Source: Catajapyx aquilonaris
Taxonomy: Eukaryota
Reading direction: 5' to 3'
Assembly (NCBI GenBank): GCA_000934665.2
Contig: KZ538497.1
Location: 1 to 64,000, forward strand
Length of the DNA stretch: 64,000 nucleotides
Shown here in pieces: positions 8,819 through 24,057 of this stretch (position 1 is the first letter of the stretch; every line of letters starts with the position of its first letter). Under the pieces are notes generated by a model that was not told the DNA's origin, made no database searches, and saw only the letters and a list, made by a program, of their open reading frames with translations. A program made the position numbers and the translations under genes.

Positions 8819-9536
8819 ATGACGACGTTACTAAAAGGAAGGGCAGCATTGCTGCAGTGTACGTCACTGTTGAGGCACCGAATAGTTGGAAACCTTAGGT
8901 AAATTTTGAGTGACTTAAATGCTTGCTTCCCGTAAATAAATTGTTTAAAAGTTATACCTTTATGTTTTGTTGACGTTTTATTACTAACAATTTAGCAGAC
9001 CTAGATTCCCTTGCATGTGTCAGAACATGTGCAGTGGAATGTTGGAAACTTCAAGTGTCACTGGTATGAGTCAGTGACCCACTTTGGCATGTTCACACTT
9101 AAAAAGTGTGCCACCTGTCACCAAGTTGAAGCTTGTGACAGATCACTCGGCATGCCCCGTTATTTTAGTCGCACTTTGTGATTCCAGGCATCTGTCCAGG
9201 CCGGCATCGCAGGACAAGGACGAATCGGAAGAGCCCGTGAAGTACACAACCAGTGAGGCAAGCAAATGGACAGCTCGTCAGTCTCACGGTGGAAACACTA
9301 AGGACATCCCGTGGTTTCAACCGTACGTGGTCATCATGAGCACTACTGCCTTCCTCGTCTACTTCTGCATCCTCAGGGAGGAAAGTGATCTGGATGACGA
9401 ACTCACCAAGACTTTGTACGAGAGGATGCCTGGCCTTGAGCAAAAGCAGCTTGAACTTTCCCTCGCGTACAACAAGGAGCACGGGTTGTCCACTACAGAT
9501 ATTGAAAACAGGCTACAGGAACTCAAGAACCAATAA
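8819..9536 (+). CDS. UQCC4: UQCC4/C16orf91 (CCSMST1 family)-like mitochondrial membrane protein (142 aa), 2 coding exons
   Basis: Exon 8819-8898 (basic, acid-free presequence-like MTTLLKGRAALLQCTSLLRHRIVGNLR|gtaaat) + exon 9188-9536 with the pattern EPVKYTTSEASKW...PWFQPYVV...FLVYFCILREESDLD, recalled as typical of the CCSMST1 family. Confidence 0.75.
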
Positions 9537-11265
9537 ATATTATGTGTAACACTTTTTATTGCTTTAAATCAATACATTGGAAAAGGAACAAAAATTTGTG
9601 AATGGCAAGCAGACAATTTGGCTCCACCACATTTGATTACTAGGGACCACGTGGACATAGCCGATGCTTTATTTGATGACGCGATTAATGTCCAACACCG
9701 TACAGTGTATTGTACGACACTACTTAAAGGGATTGCTTCTGCCTGACATCCGTTAGTGACATAGATTGATGTAGTTCCCTTCCACCAACTTACATTGTAC
9801 TTCATTAAAAATGCCAACAAAGTAATAATTCACATACAGTAATAATACGTCCTACTTCCATGCTTACTTAACTAACAACTGATTTTTCTATTAAGCTCAA
9901 TGAATGCTTAATTATTTATAAATATTTACTCAGGTTACTTGGATGCTTGCAGGGAATCACGTGAAGGTTTGTCACCAACAATCACGAATTCCCCTTCGCA
10001 TCCATAGTCCTGTTGTTTTAAAAATCCCCCCATGCGTGTACTAGTCACACCAGGCAATAGCCTGGGTAGTTTTACCTTCCTCCCGTAATTAAGGCTTGTA
10101 GAAAGTTTGATTAGGAAGGAGCCGGTGCGTAGAAAGTAAATGCACTTGTTACGAGAGCACAATAATTAGGGATAAGTCGGACGAGGCACAATATTTCTTA
10201 CAAAATGTGGTTCTGAAAAAAAGGGATTGATCAGAACTTTGTATTTTCACCATTTTCGTTTTCTAATCATTGTTACTGTTGATTGGTGAAAGGTAGTTGT
10301 CGTTTACCTTCCGAGACATTACATGTAAATGTAGTTCTTCCTCCACATTTATGAGTAGCTTCCTGTGTACTAAGTTGTCCGGAGTTTTTTCACCGATCCA
10401 TGTCTTTTTAACCAATGTTGTCATCGCACTTGATTTGTGCCTCTTGGTGCTGGAATGTACAAAGACAATGAAAATTGCTGCCTTAAATCCACGTTAAAAA
10501 TGTCCTCTTCGTATACTGCCAGCCTATGAAAAAATATGGTTTCTGCTATGAACAGGTCTATACGCTTGGGTCTATAATATTATGTCAGGTCCATCTGCAA
10601 CAGGCCAACTTTACCACACTAATCGCAGTACTAGTACTTTCAGAGGATGGCAGAGGTTGTTGAATCATATTACGGTTTGTGATTTCGCGTAATAGTCACA
10701 TTGCTTTAAAATAACGATGAGCAATTTAGCAGTCACTTATACTGTAATTATTTTTTCTCGCATTATCAGTGTGCATACTTCCATGTTCCTGCTGCCATGT
10801 TCCTGGTAGTATTCACTGAAATGTTTGAAGTTTCATTACATTTTCGATCTCAATAAAAATCAGGTTTTACCATTGTAACAATTGTTTCTAAAATGTATAT
10901 TTTTGTTTCAGCCCATTGCGGTTCACACCGATTGACACAGTTCCATAATTATTCTGAAGAAGGAAACAATGCTTGTGAACTTAACAATGGGCTGATTGGA
11001 ACTGTATTGACTGTGCGCAAGTGGTTTTATGTCATTTCACACGACTTTAAAAAAATAAATCATTAAGTAATTAGAAAGGCAGGGGGAAAAAAAATATGTG
11101 CACGACGATCTCAGTGCTTGAACCAACAATATTTTTTCCTTCTTCCGAATCGCCAGACAACTACCTTCCCACCCAACAATGACCTTATCCTTATTGTTGT
11201 CCCCCTCCATTTGAATCCATGGCAATTACATCAGACAGAGTGACTCAAGATTCGGAACAACGAGG

Positions 11266-11443
11266 ATGTGTTTCCGCAGATTTTTTGCTGGTCCTTCTCC
11301 TCGATATGAACAGGCCTTGGATGCCTACACGAACTCAGGTGGTCGGCTGGAAGCCCTGGAGTCGACCTTATTCCTGGAGTTGGCCTACTGCGCCATCCTG
11401 ACCCTCAAAGTCCGGACTGTACTGGACAGGCCCGGATTTCCAG
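11266..11443 (+). CDS. TMEM38: Putative alternative first coding exon 1a of TMEM38
   Basis: ATG 11266 to donor CAG|gtaata at 11444, phase 1 (matches the shared exon at 14785); encodes ...LFLELAYCAILTLKVRTVLDRPGFP, which aligns with PYFDVAHCALCCLAVREDLGPT of exon 1c. Confidence 0.55.
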
Positions 11444-11723
11444 GTAATAATAATCGGGCAGCAACAATCTCAAAATTAAAAAAATGAGGCGCTTGAAAAA
11501 AATTGAGCATAAATGGGGGAGTGGGTCAAATGGTGGGTGCGTGACATGTACCTCAAGGAGCGTAAGTGGAATCGATATATCGAATAGTTTTGTGGTGGAA
11601 ATATACCGTGCTTTGGGTGGGGGGAAGAAAAAGACAAGACTGGGTTTTATTCACCATCAGTCGAGTCAGAGCTGTACGTGGGTCTGCTGCTGGAGACACG
11701 ATAATTATAATCAAAAAAAAAAG

Positions 11724-11853
11724 ATGGACGTGGAGGAGGCTGAGAAGATGCTGTGGTTTCCCAACTGGGTGTCCAACATGAACCCCTGGCCGTACCTGAT
11801 CATGGCCCACTGCGTAGAGGCGGCCATCATGGTCAGGAAGGACATGAAGACCA
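11724..11853 (+). CDS. TMEM38: Putative alternative first coding exon 1b of TMEM38
   Basis: ATG 11724 to donor CCA|gtaagt at 11854, phase 1; MDVEEAEKMLWFPNWVSNMNPWPYLIMAHCVEAAIMVRKDMKT is homologous to exon 1c (MD.E...N.V..M..WPY...AHC......VR.D). Initiator-like TCAGTC at 11657-11662. Confidence 0.75.
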
Positions 11854-13211
11854 GTAAGTGCTCACAATTGACAAACATCATCGATCAGCAGCACATCTTG
11901 GGCCAATAATTCTGTCGCTCCAGCAAGCGAATAAGCTACGGTTTTTTCTATAGTCTATTTATAAAATATTCGAAACATAGACACCTGCTGTCGCGACTAT
12001 AGCAAGGTGACTATATTACGTAAAAAAAAAGGCAAAGCAGCATATAGGAAGCACGGATAAATCGACCAAGAATAATTGAGTTTTTCCATACGAATGGAAT
12101 TTCTCAAGGTTGGTTCCACCAATAATTAGTAGGTTCATGAATAGATGTAGTCATTGTTGCGGAAATAATTTTGCACCGTAAATGAATTACAATGCCTACG
12201 TTTAAAGAACTTTTAGGGTTTTTGTTCGGTTGAATTGACACAATAACAGACTACATTTTGCGCCGAAACTAATCCTATACGACGACGAGCGCGCATGGAT
12301 CTAGCAACAGAATAGAGCGATCTATTATGCAGCAAGATGTTTCGTAACATTCGTCGGGTAATATTGCATGAAAATAATGTACTACACTGTACAGTCGACT
12401 GCATATACTGATTTTAAAAATGGAAACCACACTCAGGTCAAGGCCACTAAAACGCCGTTTTTAATATTGATAATTCAACAATACGCCATCAGTATAACAA
12501 TGTTGAATATTTGCATCGTTATATCCTGACAATGTCATATTGAATTGCAAGTGTCTTCAAATTGCATATGACTTGAAGTGCAAATCGCCCGACGGTATTT
12601 TAAAAATATTGGAAGTGAGGTAAAAAAAAACACAGAAGTGAAAGCCACCACAAATAATGTACCATTAAATTTTATTGATATTCAACAACACTAAGACATA
12701 TTACATAGTAACAATTACATAATTACATGTACCTAGTAACAGTAAATAGAGCAATAATTGAACACCTGCAATAATTATATTGCCAATGAAAGAATATATT
12801 GAATTTTCATCGTTTTTTGTGAATGTGAATTGGCTGAAGTGTATATGACTTTTCATTGCACGTACATGCCTCATCTAAGTGCGCGATTCATATACCCGGC
12901 TCTTATTTCCCACGCTGAGGGTGTGTGTGCTGTGCCAATATAAAGTGGGTGGGCGGGTGGGGTTTGCTGGCCCCCCTCCACAAACCGGTCCCCTATAATA
13001 TTATCCACCAAGAGCAGGCAGGGTATGTTACTCTGAGAAGGGGAGCCGACGAGAGAGGGTCCATCTCTCTCTCTCTGTCTCCTAGAAGAGATAGTGGTGG
13101 GCAGGGGGTTATTACATCTCCTCTAGAGACTCCTCGTGTGAGGTCGGTCCGTGTCTGTCGGAGAATATCGTCGTCTCGTCAGGAGAAGATCCTCCTCCTC
13201 CTCATCCAGCC

Positions 13212-15631
13212 ATGGACCCCGAGGCCTTCCTGGACCTGGCCAACCAGGTGACCAAGCTGAAGATGTGGCCTTACTTCGACGTGGCCCACTGCGCCTTGTG
13301 CTGCCTGGCGGTCAGGGAGGACCTCGGACCCACCGGTATATACAATCGATCAATCAATCAATCAATCAATCACCCACGAGAGAGACACCTATAGTGTCGC
13401 TGACTATCGTGTTACTACATGTCGAGTGATATCCCGTCCCCCTTTCTATATACTACTGATATTGGAAAGAAAAAAATATTTTTGTTAAAAAAATAATTTT
13501 TCTTCGGGTAATTCGAACTTCGGGTTGATTTATTCTGGTATTCGGAGAGCTATTTTGGGGGGCCGTATTTGTCCGGACCATGTCTCGTCAAAAATATATC
13601 TGGGGGGGTACAAAAACAAAATGATTTGCAATTTTTTATTAGTCGGGACATTTTTTTTGCCCGAATATATAAACTCTTTGAAGAGAGATACGTCAGTTTG
13701 CAGCTTTTTTCCCCGTTGCTTATTAATGTTGGCAGACTGTAACATAATTTATGGAGAGTGCACCTCCGGGGGCTACATTTAAAAAAAAAAACACTTCCGG
13801 TGCGCACCTGCTCGAAGATTATTCAACCCAGTGGCACCGCCGGATCAAAGCGGATTTTATTACTATAGACACTGCATGGTTTTATTATAGACCGAGTCCA
13901 CAGAAAATATCCTAAGGCATTTATAGTCTTTTTTTAAATAAAAAAGTGCAGTTTTGGCACTTTGAAAGGCATTAGCGTGAAAAGCTTCAGAGCATTATCA
14001 GTAGTCCCAAAGTGGGATAGATAGCCTGGACGTACAGACAAACTTTCCCATTTATATACATACTTCTTGAGGAATTTCCTTGCACACATGTGCATGTTTT
14101 TATTGAGTTTTGTCATTTATTTGCGGGTCGACCCACCCCGCCCTGGATATATATTTACATATGGATTGATGGAGTAGAGAGACCAGACAACATTGTGATA
14201 GTAAGATGATAGTGGATGAGCGTCTGGAAGAAGAAGAAGAGAGAAAAAGAAGGAAGGAGGGAAGGGTAAGAAGTGGACCCCTGGTTCCCAAAATAATCTG
14301 CAGCTCCAAATAGCTGCCGGGGATACATATGCCGGCTGGGGTCGAGAGAATGTGAATGTGTAGGTGTGGGAATAACCGTACACACACACTGCTGACCCCG
14401 ATATGTATGGGACTATACACCGTAATGGCACAAAAAAAAAATGTGCAAATCAATTAGGGGGGTGACAGCAAAAGTATTGGTTATGTTGAATGAGCAAAGT
14501 TGCAGCTCTTTGGAAAAAGAGGAAGAGAATCGATGCTAATTTATGATTCATGACCCTTCTTCGCAATAACACACCGGCTGGTGGATATGTAGGGCACTCC
14601 CCAAACGGCCGTTGCACTGTCACCTTCTCTGCATAACCATCAAAGGTTCCGCCTCCGCACATCAAGGGTCGATATGTTGCATTTGGTATAACTCTGCAAT
14701 GTATTTTGCACACTTGCAATACTGAACAACGCTTCATTGCTGTCAAAGAAGTGGCTAGCTGCATCACGTACTGTCTCCTTCCAGGTGCTCTCCCGTTCTC
14801 CCGGAAGCACCCGCTGGCATGCTGGCTGTCCACCATGATGGTCATCTTCGCTGGCGGACTGATAGCGAATGCCCTCCTGGGTGAGCCCATCCTGGCCCCG
14901 GTCAAGAACAACCAGCAGCTCCTCCTGGCCACCGCAGTCTGGTACGCCATCTTCTACTCCCCGTTCGACGTCGGGTACAAGATAGCCAAGTTCCTGCCGG
15001 TCAAGCTGGTGCTGGCGGCCATGAAGGAGGTGTACCGCTGCAAGAAGGTGCACGACGGAGTCTCCCACGCGGCCAAGCTGTACCCAAACGCATACCTGAT
15101 CATGATTCTAATCGGGACCATCAAGGGCAACGGGGCCGGGTTCCTCAGGATCTACGAGAGGCTGGTCAGAGGGGTCTGGACGCCAACGTCCATGGAGTTC
15201 ATGCAGCCCAGCTTGTGAGTATCAAGTCATTCTCTGCAAATACACATAGAGATTAATCAACCGCCTCTTTCGCAGCCCAACGAAAGCTTGCATCGTGGCC
15301 GCACTCATCTTCGTACTGGACAAGAAGACGGACTGGATCTCCGCTCCTCACGCTCTTGTCTACTTCGGAATTGTCATATTCTTCGTGTATTTCAAGGTGA
15401 CGAATCGGTTTCGTCTGACCCGGTTGCGGAATACTTATTCTCTGTCCCTGCTTTCAGTTGTCGTCGATATTGCTGGGCATACACGACCCGTTCTTGCCGT
15501 TTGAGAACCTCTTCTGCGCCATCTTCCTCGGAGGACTCTTCGACTCCGTGTCCAGAGCCTTCGGAGGCAAGGGTGGCGATGCCTCGAAGGGAGACGCGGC
15601 CAAGAACGAGGGAGCCAAGAAGAAGGACTAG
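13212..15631 (+). CDS. TMEM38: Trimeric intracellular cation channel (TRIC/TMEM38), canonical isoform, 282 aa
   Basis: Exons 13212-13335, 14785-15214, 15276-15396, 15458-15631. MDPEAFLDLANQV..., FSRKHPLACWLSTM, LLGEPILAP, KFLPVK, GVSHAAKLYPNA and KGNGAG are recognisable invertebrate TRIC motifs; ends in KKKD (dilysine ER-retrieval-like). Confidence 0.95.
13345..13372 (+). repeat. (ATCA)n microsatellite just downstream of the exon 1c donor
   Basis: atcgatcaatcaatcaatcaatcaatca. Confidence 0.8.
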
Positions 15632-16806
15632 CCTCGTAATACCTGAAGGTCGAAGCCCCCCATTTGCTGGTCAGTCGCATTAATTTAATTTTAAAAAAAT
15701 GCAATAATGTCATTAGGTAATAAGCTGTAAAAGAAAATGAACCAACTTGTTAAGTTTTGTTTACATTATTTTTTTCCCATTATTTTGTTTTGCAGAATTT
15801 GGGCAGTATTTTGGGAACAACTTGGATATCGTCGGAAAGCAACAAATGCGGGGGCGAGAAGAGTCAGATCGAGTCCTGAACAAGAGTGAAAGTGCGAGTG
15901 TGTGTGGAAAAAGCATGTTGGCGTGACTGCGTTTTAATTTGTCCCCGTTCCCTGCCCAGTCATCGAGAGTTTTATCGTTGTTATTGTTTTAATTTTAAAA
16001 TGAAAAAGAACTGCCAAGGGTCACACCGCGTTGCTCATTTTTGTTTTTTGGTTTCTGTCCGCTTTCGTCTGCATTTCTTGAGCGGTCAAATCGTTTCGTT
16101 GCCGAGGCCGTTTTCCTCAAGAAGCACAAAACTGGTGGGTGCCTGGCGGCCTCGACAATGAAAAGCGATTTCCTACTCGCAAACTCTCTCCACTCTGCTG
16201 CTTTCATTACGTCTCGTTAATCCCCAGTGGGTTTGGTCGTAATCAGATTTTACGGAATTCGCTGGTGAATCACGCCAAATACACAAAAAGTCGAGGTACA
16301 ACATTTTTAATTTATATGCAAAGTGACATATCTTTGTGCAACATGTAAAAAAAAAAAAACACCAAACAAAAAAAAAGTGCTGACAATACACAGTGTTTTT
16401 GATGTTCATGTGTTACGTTATAGTCATGCAGTTTTATTACCCTTTGATGCAAAGAAAAATGACAAAAAAAAATAATACATAGAACATCTTAATTTCTAGG
16501 TCTCGACAATTTCTTTTTTTCCCGTGCATGTACCTGTGGTTTTTATTCCCCCTCTCCCAGTTCTAATGTAAGTGCAGTACTTTTCTGACAAAAAGGAACA
16601 ATGTGATTTTTACTGTTCAATAAAATGAGATCCTAGAAACGTGCACATGTTTTGGCAATTTCACAGCCGTTCAAAATGGTCCCACGCAGCATTTGGCATA
16701 CACTGTATGAAAAAATTAATATGTAAATCACACCACTTTTTTTCATTTAGTTGAACCAGGCCGCGGCTAATTTGTTCTTTGGCTTGAATACTCTGCGCGC
16801 AAGTGA

Positions 16807-17225
16807 TTAAGCCGATGAAACCCACTGGTCGTTTGTGGGCAGCCGCAGCGTTTCCAGCGCCAACCGCATTTCCTCCAGCGCAAACCTCCCGTCCTCCTGC
16901 GCTTTCCTCTTCCCCGGCCCAACGGCTGGCCTTCCTTCCGCCTCCTGCAGGGCATGCGGACCAGCCTCGAAGATAGTCGGCATCACATTCATATGCCACT
17001 GCCCATTCAACAGCCGCATCCTTTTTCGAGGCCCACTTTCCATCTCAGCGACTGATGGAAAAATGTACGTGCTCCAAGATGACGGAAAATGATTCTCCGA
17101 CGCACCATTCAGAGCCAGATTTTCATCTTGAAGCAAAAATCCCTGAAGGTTAATTAGTGTTTAATTATTACATTGGATTTATTATTAGAAACGCATACGT
17201 TGTAGTCCGGTATGGCCCATTTCAT
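16807..17225 (-). CDS. Uncharacterised ~120-aa protein, 2 coding exons
   Basis: Exon 17225-17199 (MKWAIPDYN|gtatgc) + exon 17142-16807 (ctaattaaccttcag|GFLLQDENL...GPRKRMRL...GKRKAQED...WVSSA*). The 56-nt intron is typical of this region, and an upstream acceptor at ~17290 implies a 5' UTR exon. No family recognised. Confidence 0.55.
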
Positions 17226-18193: not shown

Positions 18194-21100
18194 ATGGAGA
18201 AGTTTGCGGTGGACCTCGACAAGGTCCTGGACGAGTTCGAGCTGGAGGAAGGTGAGATGACGGCAGCCGCTTTAATCATTAAATTGTTTTAATTAGACTA
18301 CCGCTTACATTTGGCCTGTACCGTGTAATTGCCGCACGTTGTACGAGCGCAACGAGAAAAGGTCGGGTGCGATTTTCTGACACATGCTCTGATATGTACA
18401 GACAAACTAGTCGCACTTGTACTGGCTAGTCGCACTTGCTCTGATATGGGCTAGTCGCACTTTCTACATGTCGGGCGACAATGGCAAATGTACGGATTTT
18501 GCACTAGACGTACGTATGAGTCAGCTGGCCGGCAAGTATCAATATTTGCGATGGTAATGTTTTCATTGCGCACTGCCACGTGATTGCGTCTTATCTGATG
18601 ATAATTCAGTCGTTGCGCTTCAGTGCGAAAGGAACGCGGCTCAATTCGGACGGTACTGCAGGTCTGATTTTAAAATATTCAGGCGGTACGTAAATTTGTT
18701 TGTAAGTTCATAAGACTGTAAGTTCGTACGACTGTAAGTGCGAAAGAGCCAGCCAATTGTATCGATACGTCGCTATTTCTAGTGGGCCTATCGGAAATGC
18801 GTACATTTTTCAGATTGCGTCAACTTGCATTGTCGGCCAAGAAATGCATTGTTGTGCAATTAAAAACTCAAAACATTAGATTGCGCAATAAAATTTAAAG
18901 AGACACAAACAGCTGATAATAAATAAGCGCAATGATCTTTGATCAGGTTGATGCAACGATGGACTACCTTATCAATGTCACTCATTTCTAAGGACACGAC
19001 AGCTAATTATTAATACGTTTTTTTTTCTCATTGAGCAGATCAGGCGGAGCAAGTAGCCGGAAGAAAACTAGACAAGTCGGCTCAAGTGTTGCCGAGTGTG
19101 ACTCCGCAGGCCGATGAGACGCAGCAGGAGACGCTGGAAATCGAGGCAAGTTCGGACATTTTAATATGTTCATAAGGATCAGAAAAAAAGAGGAGCCGAA
19201 TATTGATGAGATGATTATTTGGCCGTGTGCCAAGGACATATTTTGATTGGTAGCAAGTTGCGTGGCTTCACGTCACATGCATTAATATTCATCGCATGTT
19301 ACTGACGATGCTTGCGATGATTTTGCAGGAAGAGTCGTCCAAGTCCGTGGTGGACGTCCACATTGAGGACATTCGGATAGGGACGGAAGTGGAGGAGACG
19401 GTGGAAGAGGCGCAGACTGAGCGACTATCGAATGGGCTGACTGAGAGTGACGCCAACCCGGTGATGGTGATCGAAGAGGAGAAGGAAGAGGAGGTTCAAG
19501 ACGGGAACAGGGAAGCGGACAGTGTGGTTCGGTTTGGACAGTGCGATGAGAGCGAACAGGATCTCGAGAGCTGCCTGGAACATTTGTTGGAGGAAGAAGA
19601 AATGGAGTGCGGAAAGACCTTAGATTTGGTCGAAACAATGTCGACGGCAGCGGAAGTACGGCGCTCGCAGAATCCGGACGTCGTAAGGCATCATCAGGAG
19701 GACACCAAAGAGGAGGCGGACGAAATAGATAATCTGTCCCACACGTTATCCGAAATGATGCGCGATTCCCCGTCAGCGTCGGAGGGGCTTGTTATGTTGT
19801 GCGAGGAGAGTCGCAACGAAGCAGTTAAGTCGGAGCATAGGCCCGCACAGCCAGTCAGTATGTGTGAAGAGCCTCGGACACATCAGCGGCCTGTCACATT
19901 GGACGTGACGCCTTGTCAGCCGGTGGACCAACCCAGAGAGGACGAGGCTGCCCCGAAAGTGCAGCGGCCGACGTCGCTGCATCTCCCGGCCAAAATAACA
20001 GTCCCGCAACAGGCCGCCACAGAATCAGAGGCGGAATCGGACGACGACCTTGCCCAAAACGCGGTGATCGGCCCACCTGGCGCGACCCCTGCGAACCCCA
20101 GACCGCCATCGAACGTAGGGTCGCCATCGCCGCCGCCTCCGTACCACGTAGCATGTGCCCAACCGCCGATGGCCCCGCCGGTTGTTCCTCCCAGTGAACC
20201 ATCCCCTCCGTCGTCCTCTCCGTCTTCGTCCGCATCCCCGTCGCCTCCTGATTCACCCGGTGCATGTCCGCACCAACCCTTAGGCGCCCCTCCGTCGCCC
20301 CTATCCATTCTAACCGAGGACGAAAGACGACTTGGGAAAGTCCCGCCGTTTTGGGTTCCGGACGTGGAGGCCCCCGTTTGCATGCGATGCGAAACCAAGT
20401 TCACGGTGATAAAGAGGCGACACCACTGCCGGGCTTGCGGAAAGGTGAGTCCGCATGTTGCGACCCGTTTGCATTGTACTAACGCTATATCTCCGCAGGT
20501 GCTATGTTCTCATTGTTGCAATAGTAGATCGAAGCTGTCCTATTTGGACGGGAAGGAAGCGAGGGTTTGCCAGACTTGCCTCACCACCATCAACAAAGGT
20601 TTGTGTTTCGCGGGTTAGCCGGAGTTGCGCTTTTCAATTCGATCTCGTTGCAGTCACGTCTCTGGAGCAGGCCTCTGGTATGATGTGTGATGCCGAGGGC
20701 GCCGTTGGTGGAGCCGTTGGCGGTGCTGTTGGCGGCGCCGTCGGGGGCGTGGGTCCCCCGCACCTTCCGCTGGGGAGGCGACCCAACCCGAACAACCCGA
20801 TGGAGTACTGCTCCACCATTCCGCCGTTGCAGCAGGCCAGGGAGAACCTGAACCAGCCGCCTCCTTCCGTCATGGTTCCAGTCTCCGTGCTCAAAAGAGA
20901 AGGTCAGCATTGCCGTAGCTTTAAACAGTATTTCCCCCGTGATGCGCATCACGTTACTTGCGATAAGGACCTCCGTTTGCCTCACTATCAGCGAATAATT
21001 TAAGACAAACAGGATGTAAACATCGATTGTACGCCACATCGTACGTGGCAATACGAATTCATTACAAGCGCACAAGTGGTACGGAAAATTTGTTACAAGT

Positions 21101-24057
21101 CGATCGACTCGACTTTCTTCCGACAACAATGAATTTTTTTTGACAGGTAATCGAATGAACTAATTGGATTTTAGAGCAATTTCTTTTTATTTTTCCCAGC
21201 CAAATTCGTACAGTACCCGTAATTGTTTTGGCAGTAATTGAACAAGTACGCCGGTTAATGCTGCATGTCTCTTTTGAGAATACGATTAGATTATACGATG
21301 CTTTTTAGTTTTAATCAGTCGTAGCGTTTTGTGTCATGTCGCTTTGGTCTGCGGTGAAGGTCGCTAGTCGATTAATTCGACCTCAATGAGATTATATACC
21401 ACTTTCATTAATTACGTACTTCTTGACGCGGGAAATTCACACAACTTGAATTTACAGACGGTCGTCTTAATTTGTCGAAAGCCCGTCCGATTCGCTAAGC
21501 CTTTGCCTAAAGACCATCGCGTCTGGTTTATTCCGAGTGCATGTTGGGCCTAACAAAAACGTGTGTTGTGGATCGTAAACAACAAAAAAGGGAGCATGAA
21601 GCCTCGAGGGGAGCCGAAGCAGGTGATGTTCAGCGATGGGATCCGACCTGGAGGTGACCTTACGGAGCTGGACGGCCCAGGGTCAGGACCAGGGTCAGAC
21701 CCCATGCTGCCTAGGGCATCGGCCGGAAGGGTCAAGAGGCAGGTCATCACCCCCACAGGTCAGGACTCTTAACATCCGACTGCACTAAAAAATAATTAAA
21801 AAGAAAAATACTCGGCAGAACGAGAGACGCTTTTCACGCAACAATGCGAAAGAGGGAGAGAGAGTCTGGGGAACCGTTTCACGTTAAAAAAGGATTTTAA
21901 AGGAGATCCGCGCTTTCAGGAGCGGAAGGGTCGAAGGGAGGGTGGCGAGCAGGAGGAGGGCCAATTGCCCAGGGGCCGTCCGCCCAGGGGCCGACCCCAC
22001 CCCCCCAGCCGCAGCCCCCTTCCTCCGCCACTACCCCTCCCCCTGCGGTGGTGAGGGTCCTCCGGACAGCCTCGGTGGACGGCCAGCCCTGCCTCCTGCC
22101 GCCAAACGGACGAGGGCTGCCCCCTGTGCTTATTGGCACCGGGTCAAAAGGAGGTCAGTCTTTAAAAACATTCCAAAAAAAAAGCAATACGGACATTAAC
22201 AATGTTTTCTTCTACTCTCTCTCTCACTCTCTCTTGTTTGCCAGTTGCTATCATACGGTTGCGGGAGAACCACAAGAAAACTAGCCGTTTTGTTCCTTCC
22301 GTTTCAGAATACTTGTTCGACGAACAGCCCGATTCGGATAAGCTTCTGGAGCGAATGAAGGACGAGACGTCGCCTCCAGTGGCGTTTGCGCTCAACAAGA
22401 ATCTTTTCGTACTCGTAAAGCTTCTTACATGTAAGCCATCCCACTATTTACGATCGAATGTACGTTAACGCCGATTGCGTTTCAGTGGACTGTTGCGTGA
22501 ATCGCGTTTGTTGGTGCGTGACGTCGAAGGGGTTGAGCAGCGTGGGTCAAGATGAGATTGTGTTCGTCCTGGAAAGGCTTCCGGATGAGAACTCGCCGCC
22601 TCGGGATCTGTTTGCGCACATCCATCTTCTGCACCAGGAGGCCTCTCGAGGAACGACTGTCATGGAGATGGGTCACAGCCTGGTCACTGGCTCGTTTCTA
22701 GGGTCGAGAGACCACGGCGGCTTCATCTTCCTTCGCCCAACCTTCCAGTGCCTGCATAAACTAATCCTCCCGCCGCCTCCGTACCTCGTCGGAATCCTTC
22801 TGCAAAAATGGGAGGCGCCTTGGGCTAAGGTAGGTCGTAACGTGCTAATGCGGTTGCCGACTAATTACGTTCGATTGCAGGTGTTTCCGCTCCGATTGCT
22901 TCTCCGCCTCGGGGCCGAGTTCCGCTACTACCCCTGCCCACTAGTGAGTGTCCGCCATCGTCGTCCGCTTTACTGCGAAATCGGCCACACCATAATGAAC
23001 CTGCTGGCGGATCTCCGCAACTTCTCTTACTACCTTCCGGTCGTTAGAGGATTAGTGGTGCACATGGAGGACAAGAAGACCTCCCTGCTGCTTCCGAAGA
23101 ACCGGTGGCAGCAGGTGGCCTCCGCTGTGTCCAACTCAAACGAGCATGTTCTGGCTCTTGGCGCCAACTTCAGCCCGGGAGCCGACTCCCACTTGGTGTG
23201 CATGCAGCAGCCGGAAGACGCCTCGTACCACACCCAGGCCATCAACATCCAGAGCAGGCCGCGGAGGGTCACCGGCGCCTCCTTCGTTGTCTTCAACGGT
23301 GCGCTGAAAGCTGCGTCGGGGTTGACCGCCAAGTCGTCAATCGTTGAGGACGGGCTCATGGTGCAGGTGCTGCCTGCGACAATGGCAGCCATCAGAGCCG
23401 CATTGTTGGGGCTGAAGGATTATACCGTGCCATGCGGGCCAACCGGCGCATCTGCCCCGGACGAGGCTGTCATACTGAAGTGGGTCGACGACGACAGGAG
23501 CTTTAACGTTGGGTGAGACCCGGATTTAACTTGCGTCGTAATAAATCATTGTGATGATACGTAATTTCAGTGTGAAGAGCGGAATCGACGGGACGTCGTT
23601 GGAGGGCGTTGTCTCAATCCGAGTGCACAATGGTACTGATTACGTCGGGGAATCCTCGCAGCGGTTGATCCGATGGACCGAGGTGTTTCTCATCACTGGC
23701 GGCGGGACGTCGACCGCGCCTGGTTCAGCCCAGGGGCGGCCCTCGTCTGTTGGGGACGACCCTGTGGATGTCAGCCGCGTGGCCGAGGAGATAGCGAGGG
23801 CGGCCTGTGTGGGGCTGGCTCCACACTTGGACGGCCTCAGGGAATGCGGACTGAGCCCGCTCTCGGTACGGGCCACCATTGATCCGGATAACGTCGGGTA
23901 CGAGGCTGGTTCATGCGGCAAGAAGCTCCCCCCTCTGTACATGAACTGTCTGGACTCGGCCCTCGTCCCGGTGATTCACAAGGCCGCGTCCGGAGTCTCG
24001 TCTGATAGCGACGGCCCTTTAACGCTAGAGCTCATCTTCCATGTGCTCGAACACTGA
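18194..24057 (+). CDS. Sara: Smad anchor for receptor activation / endofin family FYVE-domain protein (ZFYVE9/ZFYVE16), ~1205 aa, 11 coding exons
   Basis: Exons 18194-18251, 19039-19145, 19329-20444, 20499-20598, 20654-20902, 21591-21758, 21920-22153, 22308-22430, 22486-22829, 22881-23512, 23571-24057 total 3618 nt in frame. N-terminal [14 protein letters not shown] (WVPD...[10 protein letters not shown]...RVC); Smad-binding [19 protein letters not shown]; RVxF-type KQVMF; C-terminal DUF3480-type domain ([12 protein letters not shown]). AATAAA at 24115-24120. Confidence 0.95.
18318..18657. mobile_element. Possible degenerate non-autonomous DNA transposon remnant in SARA intron
   Basis: Weak inverted ends (gtaccgt..aattg / caatt..acggtac) and three copies of ctagtcgcactt at 18407, 18426 and 18451. 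Confidence 0.3.

Follow-up and report, generated by a model that had tools for sequence, protein, structure and literature searches.

Tandem copies of the first coding exon in a TRIC (TMEM38) channel gene of Catajapyx aquilonaris: a likely choice between two, and possibly three, first exons

The first 64,000 nucleotides (nt) of contig KZ538497.1 of the Catajapyx aquilonaris assembly GCA_000934665.2, read on the forward strand and referred to below as the window, contain a gene of the TRIC (TMEM38) family. TRIC channels are homotrimers that conduct monovalent cations in the membrane of the endoplasmic or sarcoplasmic reticulum; they are thought to provide counter-ion flow during Ca2+ release from it, and the diversification of the family is known so far by whole-gene duplication. 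An earlier note on this DNA had proposed that the gene possesses three homologous, mutually exclusive first coding exons, here termed 1a, 1b and 1c in their order along the strand, which would be joined in turn to a single set of shared exons. Our analysis points to a likely two-way, and possibly a three-way, alternative first exon that arose by tandem exon duplication.

A four-exon TRIC gene and its canonical first exon

The affiliation of the gene is apparent from exon 2, which matches the Pfam TRIC profile (PF05197) with 223.2 bits and an expect value (E) of 2.8e-66 (cut-off 25.9; profile positions 6-145 of 193), and from exon 3, which matches positions 147-187 of the same profile (45.7 bits, E 7.3e-12). 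When longer proteins were searched with exon 2, 341 of 978 candidates had an E of 1e-10 or less, and the best 120 of these 341 belong to insects and crustaceans, apart from one nematode entry (569 residues) and unnamed entries. These matches place the species in the insect-crustacean group and show that the collection contains none of its close relatives. Identity of exon 2 to the insect and crustacean proteins is 73-82%, the top value among the matches listed being that of a louse protein. As a sequence-level check, its translation was also found to contain the glycine-rich stretches FAGG and KGNGAGF, and glycine-rich kinks in transmembrane helices 2 and 5 (TM2 and TM5) are described as common to eukaryotic and prokaryotic TRICs in the cited passages of PMC5143425. 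The locus is a TRIC-B-like (TMEM38) channel gene of pancrustacean type whose coding sequence is spread over four exons (Table 1); the earlier note had recognized it as a TMEM38/TRIC gene. Its further claim that the downstream exons are single is likewise borne out, for no second copy of exons 2, 3 or 4 was detected in the window (best non-self tblastn E at least 0.12). The TRIC profile that had been suggested for checking the isoforms served its purpose for exons 2 and 3; the model begins after TM1 and cannot judge exons 1a, 1b and 1c, for which the Pfam scan gave no relevant match.

Each of the three candidate first exons has the ATG, the coordinates, the phase-1 GT donor and the frame that had been claimed for it, and each fits the acceptor at 14784/14785. 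Their lengths are all of the form 3n+1, so that translation from 1a, 1b or 1c proceeds in frame through exon 2 to the same stop, yielding products of 300, 284 and 282 residues, respectively. Taken alone, this fit is weak as evidence, given that 18 ATG-to-phase-1-GT combinations of at least 90 nt, from 10 ATGs, occur on the forward strand between 10900 and 14784.

The most downstream of the three, exon 1c, has counterparts in other arthropods. Over the first 18 residues it agrees fully with several arthropod TRIC proteins, and it fits the canonical pattern of the N-terminus and TM1, K-L-K-M-x-P-Y-F-D-x-A-H ... V-R-x-D-L-G. Against a profile of arthropod N-termini it scores with E 5.6e-28; this profile was built from 115 of the listed 120 sequences, leaving out 5 in which either the initial Met or, at positions 30-60, the landmark FS[RK]KHP was absent. 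In the PDB it matches residues 9-49 of the Caenorhabditis elegans TRIC-B chains (5eik, E 8.9e-10; 5egi, E 6.6e-8) and, more weakly, the TRIC type B-B chain 6iz3 (E 0.069). By comparison with these relatives, 1c is the canonical and evidently the ancestral arthropod first coding exon.

RNA data covering the locus are available from one public run, which exists as contigs only and whose kind is not on record; we read it as complementary DNA (cDNA) because its contigs are spliced at GT..AG. Its main contig over the gene (2484 nt, depth 65.9) has no differences from the window and is composed of blocks at 13045-13334 or 13335, 14784 or 14785-15214, 15276-15396, 15458-15668 and 15795-17141. The mRNA composed of exons 1c, 2, 3 and 4 is the dominant one, with a leader whose start lies at 13045 or further upstream. 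A TATA-like element ahead of this leader (Table 1) is a candidate core promoter of the 1c transcript. A (TCAA)n microsatellite (13340-13370) begins 5 nt past the 1c donor, and the 13335/14785 junction, though present in the contig pieces, is missing from the table of joints because this repeat was skipped.

Table 1. Features of the TRIC gene and its 5' region (positions in the window; UTR, untranslated region)
Feature	Position	Strand	Description
Exon 1a (candidate)	11266-11443	+	178 nt; ATG; 59 codons + 1 nt; donor CAG/GTAATA
Putative 5'UTR leader of 1b	11650-11723	+	Low-depth cDNA contig; no ATG; start good to a few bases
Exon 1b	11724-11853	+	130 nt; ATG; 43 codons + 1 nt; donor CCA/GTAAGT
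TATAAT, TATA-like	12994-12999	+	46-51 nt ahead of where the main contig begins; found by eye
5'UTR of 1c mRNA	13045-13211	+	Main cDNA contig, unspliced through 13210
Exon 1c	13212-13335	+	124 nt; ATG; 41 codons + 1 nt; donor CCG/GTATAT
Exon 2, shared	14785-15214	+	430 nt; TM2 to about TM5; acceptor TTCCAG/G at 14784/14785; cDNA junctions
Exon 3, shared	15276-15396	+	121 nt; junctions 15214/15276 and 15396/15458, GT..AG
Exon 4, coding part	15458-15631	+	Stop TAG 15629-15631; exon extends to 15668
3'UTR intron	15669-15794	+	126 nt; GT..AG; 37 nt after the stop; 3'UTR resumes at 15795
AATAAA	16619	+	In 3'UTR

One clear and one possible copy of the first coding exon upstream of 1c

The earlier note had regarded all three first exons as homologous, and this holds well for 1b and 1c. 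The two align by BLASTP without a gap, with 13 of 37 residues identical (35%, E 2e-9), and tblastn over the whole window recovers the pair at E 4.8e-6. When the 2660 six-frame open reading frames (ORFs) of the window were ranked against the arthropod N-terminus profile, 1b came second (E 0.0022). It was again second among 52,817 stop-free six-frame windows scored with an ungapped position-specific scoring matrix (PSSM) of the 21-residue TM1 core, reaching 24.0 bits, where 1c itself reaches 50.9. In the DNA, the two exons share 72% identity over 54 nt, in register, and their flanks are without similarity; because only this segment inside the exons can be aligned, we take the duplication to be old. 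Judged from its sequence, 1b is a real, old and diverged tandem copy of 1c. For this pair the comparisons also support the proposal that the segment being swapped is the N-terminus together with TM1.

Furthermore, 1b still looks like a coding exon that has been maintained. The G+C content at the third positions of its codons (GC3) is 0.93 (40 of 43 codons; P 9e-13 against a background of 41% G+C), compared with 0.47 and 0.33 at first and second positions (GC1 and GC2). Exon 2 has a GC3 of 0.89, and the introns around the first exons contain 35-41% G+C. Among the 13 residues common to 1b and 1c, 12 are specified by the same codon. We simulated the neutral decay of 1c to the observed divergence of 39% under a model with no indels and an equilibrium G+C of 0.40; of 100,000 simulations, 1.9% kept the ATG, the open frame and the GT donor, and 0.08% kept a GC3 of at least 0.9.

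A separate contig of the run, with a depth of 2.95, lies over 1b. It extends from approximately 11650 to 11854, thereby taking in a leader of about 75-80 nt and the whole of the exon, and breaks off no more than about 2 nt from the 1b donor; the bins flanking it (10988-11555 and 12124-12975) have a depth of 0. An end at the donor would fit de Bruijn assembly, in which a contig breaks where spliced and unspliced paths part. Compared with the window, the contig shows 4 substitutions, two insertions of 3 nt and a shifted 12-letter end, all of them within the roughly 75 nt ahead of the ATG. The substitutions and insertions fall within 11669-11718, and no differences are listed inside exon 1b. Unlike this leader, the two long contigs of the run match the window without any difference for some 3.7 kb; the differences in the leader could stem from a second allele or a second genomic copy. 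The A-rich run ahead of the 1b ATG makes a poor acceptor. Further upstream, an in-frame ATG at 11484 opens a 123-codon ORF (11484-11853, forward strand) that runs into 1b, but since it lies upstream of the contig start at about 11650, this ORF is probably not in the transcript.

The case of exon 1a is marginal. When self-matches are set aside, tblastn over the window pairs it best with exon 1c (E 0.14; reverse search E 0.067), and the two are reciprocal best non-trivial matches whose aligned ends lie two codons apart. With the TM1-core PSSM it ranks 8 of 52,817, in the register that the earlier note had assigned to it. The 1c-similar part of 1a (11311-11442) has a coding-like composition, with GC3 (0.73) above GC1 (0.59) and GC1 above GC2 (0.45), and the best 17-residue Kyte-Doolittle mean of 1a is 1.51, the values for 1b and 1c being 1.22 and 1.36. 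From the canonical pattern it retains just A-Y-C ... V-R and an acidic residue. The common motif that had been pointed out, A-[HY]-C-x6-V-R, is indeed present in all three exons and nowhere else in the window (3 occurrences in 127,996 six-frame positions), a count that is circular, as the motif was derived from these very exons. Homology gains in likelihood because the best match of 1a lies on the same strand, no more than 3.9 kb upstream of exon 2, and has a donor of the same phase. On balance we lean towards homology of 1a with 1c; 1a would then probably be a copy of this exon older even than 1b.

Interpretation and alternative explanations

We favour, with a probability of about 0.55 for the reading as a whole, the view that 1b constitutes an alternative promoter and first exon giving rise to a minor isoform, and that 1a is probably an older copy. 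Under this reading, 1c, which has its own leader and supplies the dominant mRNA, would act as the default first exon. Exon 1b, about 1.4 kb upstream of 1c, retains ATG, open frame, phase, consensus donor and the extreme codon bias seen in the gene, and would be transcribed at a low level from its own start about 75-80 nt ahead of the ATG. We infer a junction between 1b and exon 2, translation of the resulting isoform and a functional difference: the 1b donor would be spliced to the shared acceptor at 14785 to give a minor or tissue-restricted mRNA, and the 284-residue isoform translated from it would have its luminal N-terminus and TM1 replaced. The monomeric pore of prokaryotic TRICs is made up of TM1, TM2, TM4 and TM5, according to the cited passages of PMC5477506 and PMC5143425. 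Because TM1 is one of the pore helices there, the 1b isoform could, by homology, differ in conduction or gating.

Several observations weigh against this reading, and many of them would suit the explanation that 1c alone is functional, with 1b and 1a being old relics (1a maybe a chance ORF) and the contig over 1b representing noise or a non-productive transcript. The RNA evidence comes from a single contig-only run, in which a blank says nothing on expression. The sole first-exon junction seen there is 13335/14785; of the junctions that had been suggested as a check, neither 11853/14785 nor 11443/14785 is listed, and the bins over 1a (10988-11555) are without cover. The extent of the 1b contig was itself computed, from bin depths of 1.97 (bin 11556-11839) and 0.16 and a loose end at 11651. 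Another low-depth contig, with bin depths of 0.46 and 0.88, is located at about 13828-14395 in the intron between 1c and exon 2; it indicates stray low-level transcription at the locus, and hence the 1b contig alone is no proof of an exon. The divergence between 1b and 1c (dN, nonsynonymous, 0.61; dS, synonymous, 0.49; ratio about 1.2) fits relaxed constraint too, although the ratio is uninformative because of the extreme codon bias in both copies and because all of the change may sit on one branch. In terms of sequence pattern, 1b retains P-Y, A-H-C and V-R-x-D but has lost F-D, whereas P-[YF]-F-D occurs in 111 of the 115 arthropod N-termini and also in the nematode and type B-B chains of the PDB, and a search of the PDB with 1b matched no TRIC chain. 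No proteins sharing words with 1b were present in a collection of 5.8 billion sequences (77-2000 and 23-76 amino acids). Finally, the 18 ATG-to-donor combinations noted above exist in this 3.9-kb stretch regardless of any duplication.

The properties of 1b itself run counter to an explanation by relics. Its GC3 has stayed at 0.93 even though its flanks have lost all similarity and are as poor in G+C as the surrounding introns, and neutral decay rarely preserved the frame with ATG and donor, and still more rarely the codon bias, in the simulations. The contig over 1b begins shortly ahead of the ATG and ends at the donor between bins of zero depth, and the exon within it has no listed differences as against 6 just upstream. 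We consider it unlikely that 1c is the only functional first exon. At the opposite pole stands the full scheme of three promoters and three mutually exclusive first exons, giving isoforms of 300, 284 and 282 residues. All three exons start with ATG, are of phase 1 and are in frame with exon 2, and for 1a one can adduce its rank and register in the TM1-core search, its best window match to 1c, the coding-like composition of its similar part and a hydropathy resembling that of 1b and 1c. Yet the similarity of 1a is not significant by itself: BLASTP aligns it with neither 1b nor 1c, and in the arthropod N-terminus profile it ranks 163 of 2660 ORFs with E 80. Its first 15 codons have a GC3 of only 0.20, and an out-of-frame ATG at 11219, upstream of the exon, opens an overlapping ORF. 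In addition, a phmmer search with 1a among 1.84 billion representatives gave 6 matches that we rejected as relatives, these being long or repeat proteins with scores summed over repeats (two of them hold 6 and 5 matched stretches); a Pfam scan of 5 of the 6 found TPR repeats in two and scattered weak matches in three, and no TRIC domain. We regard the three-way scheme as unlikely as well, slightly more so than the explanation by relics.

The mutual exclusivity of the first exons is itself putative. A strong acceptor-like site, formed by a pyrimidine run and a CAG, reaches as far as 13209 and leaves two bases to the 1c ATG; it is in frame with the donors of 1a and 1b, which makes inclusion of 1b ahead of 1c possible. 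Splicing of 1b, or of 1a, to this acceptor-like site would turn 1c into an internal exon and add a further N-terminal helix; alternatively, 1b might be an upstream ORF. The pyrimidine run is long, the site is closer to the 1b donor than the acceptor at 14784 by about 1.6 kb, and by simple arithmetic the frame is preserved when the two bases preceding the 1c ATG are added to 130 or 178 nt. The main contig, by contrast, is unspliced through 13210, no joint to 13210 is listed, and, to go by the topology of the family, an eighth helix before TM1 would reverse the orientation of the N-terminus in a channel of seven helices. Such arrangements seem to us highly improbable. Returning to the reading of 1b as an alternative first exon, the choice between 1b and 1c would be made by the transcription start, because the copies are first exons without an upstream acceptor.

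Relatives, precedents and flanking transcripts

The product of exons 1c, 2, 3 and 4 represents a full-length orthologue of the arthropod TRIC 'type 1B.1' proteins (for instance that of Pediculus humanus, and those of decapods, beetles, flies and moths), with 282 residues against 275-284. These orthologues differ in that none of the 27 sequences compared has a 1b-like or 1a-like N-terminus. Among 15 members of eight 90%-identity clusters (from decapods, beetles or unnamed), variation is confined to N-termini that were called longer, to insertions behind exon 1 and to changes at the C-terminus; as a further point against the favoured reading, none of these 15 has a substituted first exon. The annotated isoforms of Panulirus (X1-X3), Portunus (X1 and X2), Photinus (X1 and X2) and also Penaeus vary in their C-terminus or through an insertion behind exon 1, and three other cluster members differ only by a longer called N-terminus. 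A scan of metagenomes with a 49-residue 1b reference returned one locus, which we set aside as fortuitous, the match covering 16 residues and the vicinity lacking a TRIC exon. The first-exon arrangement is either lineage-specific or unannotated elsewhere. The earlier suggestion that this lineage diversifies its channel is an inference; no relative with an exon like 1b or 1a turned up in the searches made.

Within the family, vertebrates possess two whole TRIC genes, TRIC-A and TRIC-B. In C. elegans, TRIC-B1 and TRIC-B2 (5eik and 5egi) are likewise products of two genes, whereas the duplication here is confined to the first coding exon. At the UGT1A locus and in the clustered protocadherins, several homologous first exons with a promoter apiece are spliced to constant exons. 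In comparison to those clusters, the copies here number two or three, their promoters are putative, and the variable part spans 41-59 residues, i.e. one helix rather than a whole domain. A second precedent is the substitution of tandem-duplicated homologous exons, or mutually exclusive exons, treated in the cited parts of reviews PMC9741552, PMC8373072 and PMC9013439. As described there, such systems share with the present one the tandem copies of the same phase, the homologous peptide and isoforms that differ in one homologous segment; they differ in being mostly internal exons chosen by splicing, whereas each copy here is a first coding exon that brings its own ATG. The mechanism by which tandem exon duplication leads to homologous alternative exons is already known. 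In agreement with the earlier note, our literature searches, judged by title, turned up no report of alternative first exons or promoters of TMEM38/TRIC.

If 1b is used, one gene would give rise to two channels identical except for the N-terminus and TM1. This would offer a naturally tolerated helix swap for studies of structure and function, as well as a case of promoter-coupled isoform choice in an organellar channel. A more elaborate system, with two or three promoters, N-termini and TM1 segments that differ (one without F-D), mixed trimers, and channels whose conductance or gating varies by tissue, we consider doubtful. If 1b is unused, the locus would be an ordinary TRIC gene preceded by old relics of exons.

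Some features of the surroundings may be recorded here. The low-depth contig in the intron between 1c and exon 2 adjoins a GA-rich repeat (14226-14266); by eye, a segment from an ATG at about 14206 to a donor AGG/GTAAGA near 14266 can be recognized, but its phase is 0 and it would not read into exon 2. This contig may represent a non-coding alternative start or noise. The upstream neighbour (9078-9536, forward strand) is a gene of the CCSMST1 family (Pfam E 3.6e-29). The cDNA contig over it (9186-10861) has a joint 10212/10308 whose CT..AC ends mark an intron of the minus strand, which implies an antisense or convergent transcript overlapping the 3' part of the gene. At the other end, the contig of the TRIC gene continues beyond the AATAAA (16619) to a joint of the CT..AC type, 17141/17467; its 3' part has probably been merged with a convergent minus-strand transcript, with ORFs at 16661-17160. 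The downstream neighbour (19254-24057, forward strand) has matches to FYVE (E 3e-13), SARA (E 4e-20) and SARA_C (E 6e-104), and looks like a SARA/ZFYVE9-type gene, an endosomal Smad anchor.

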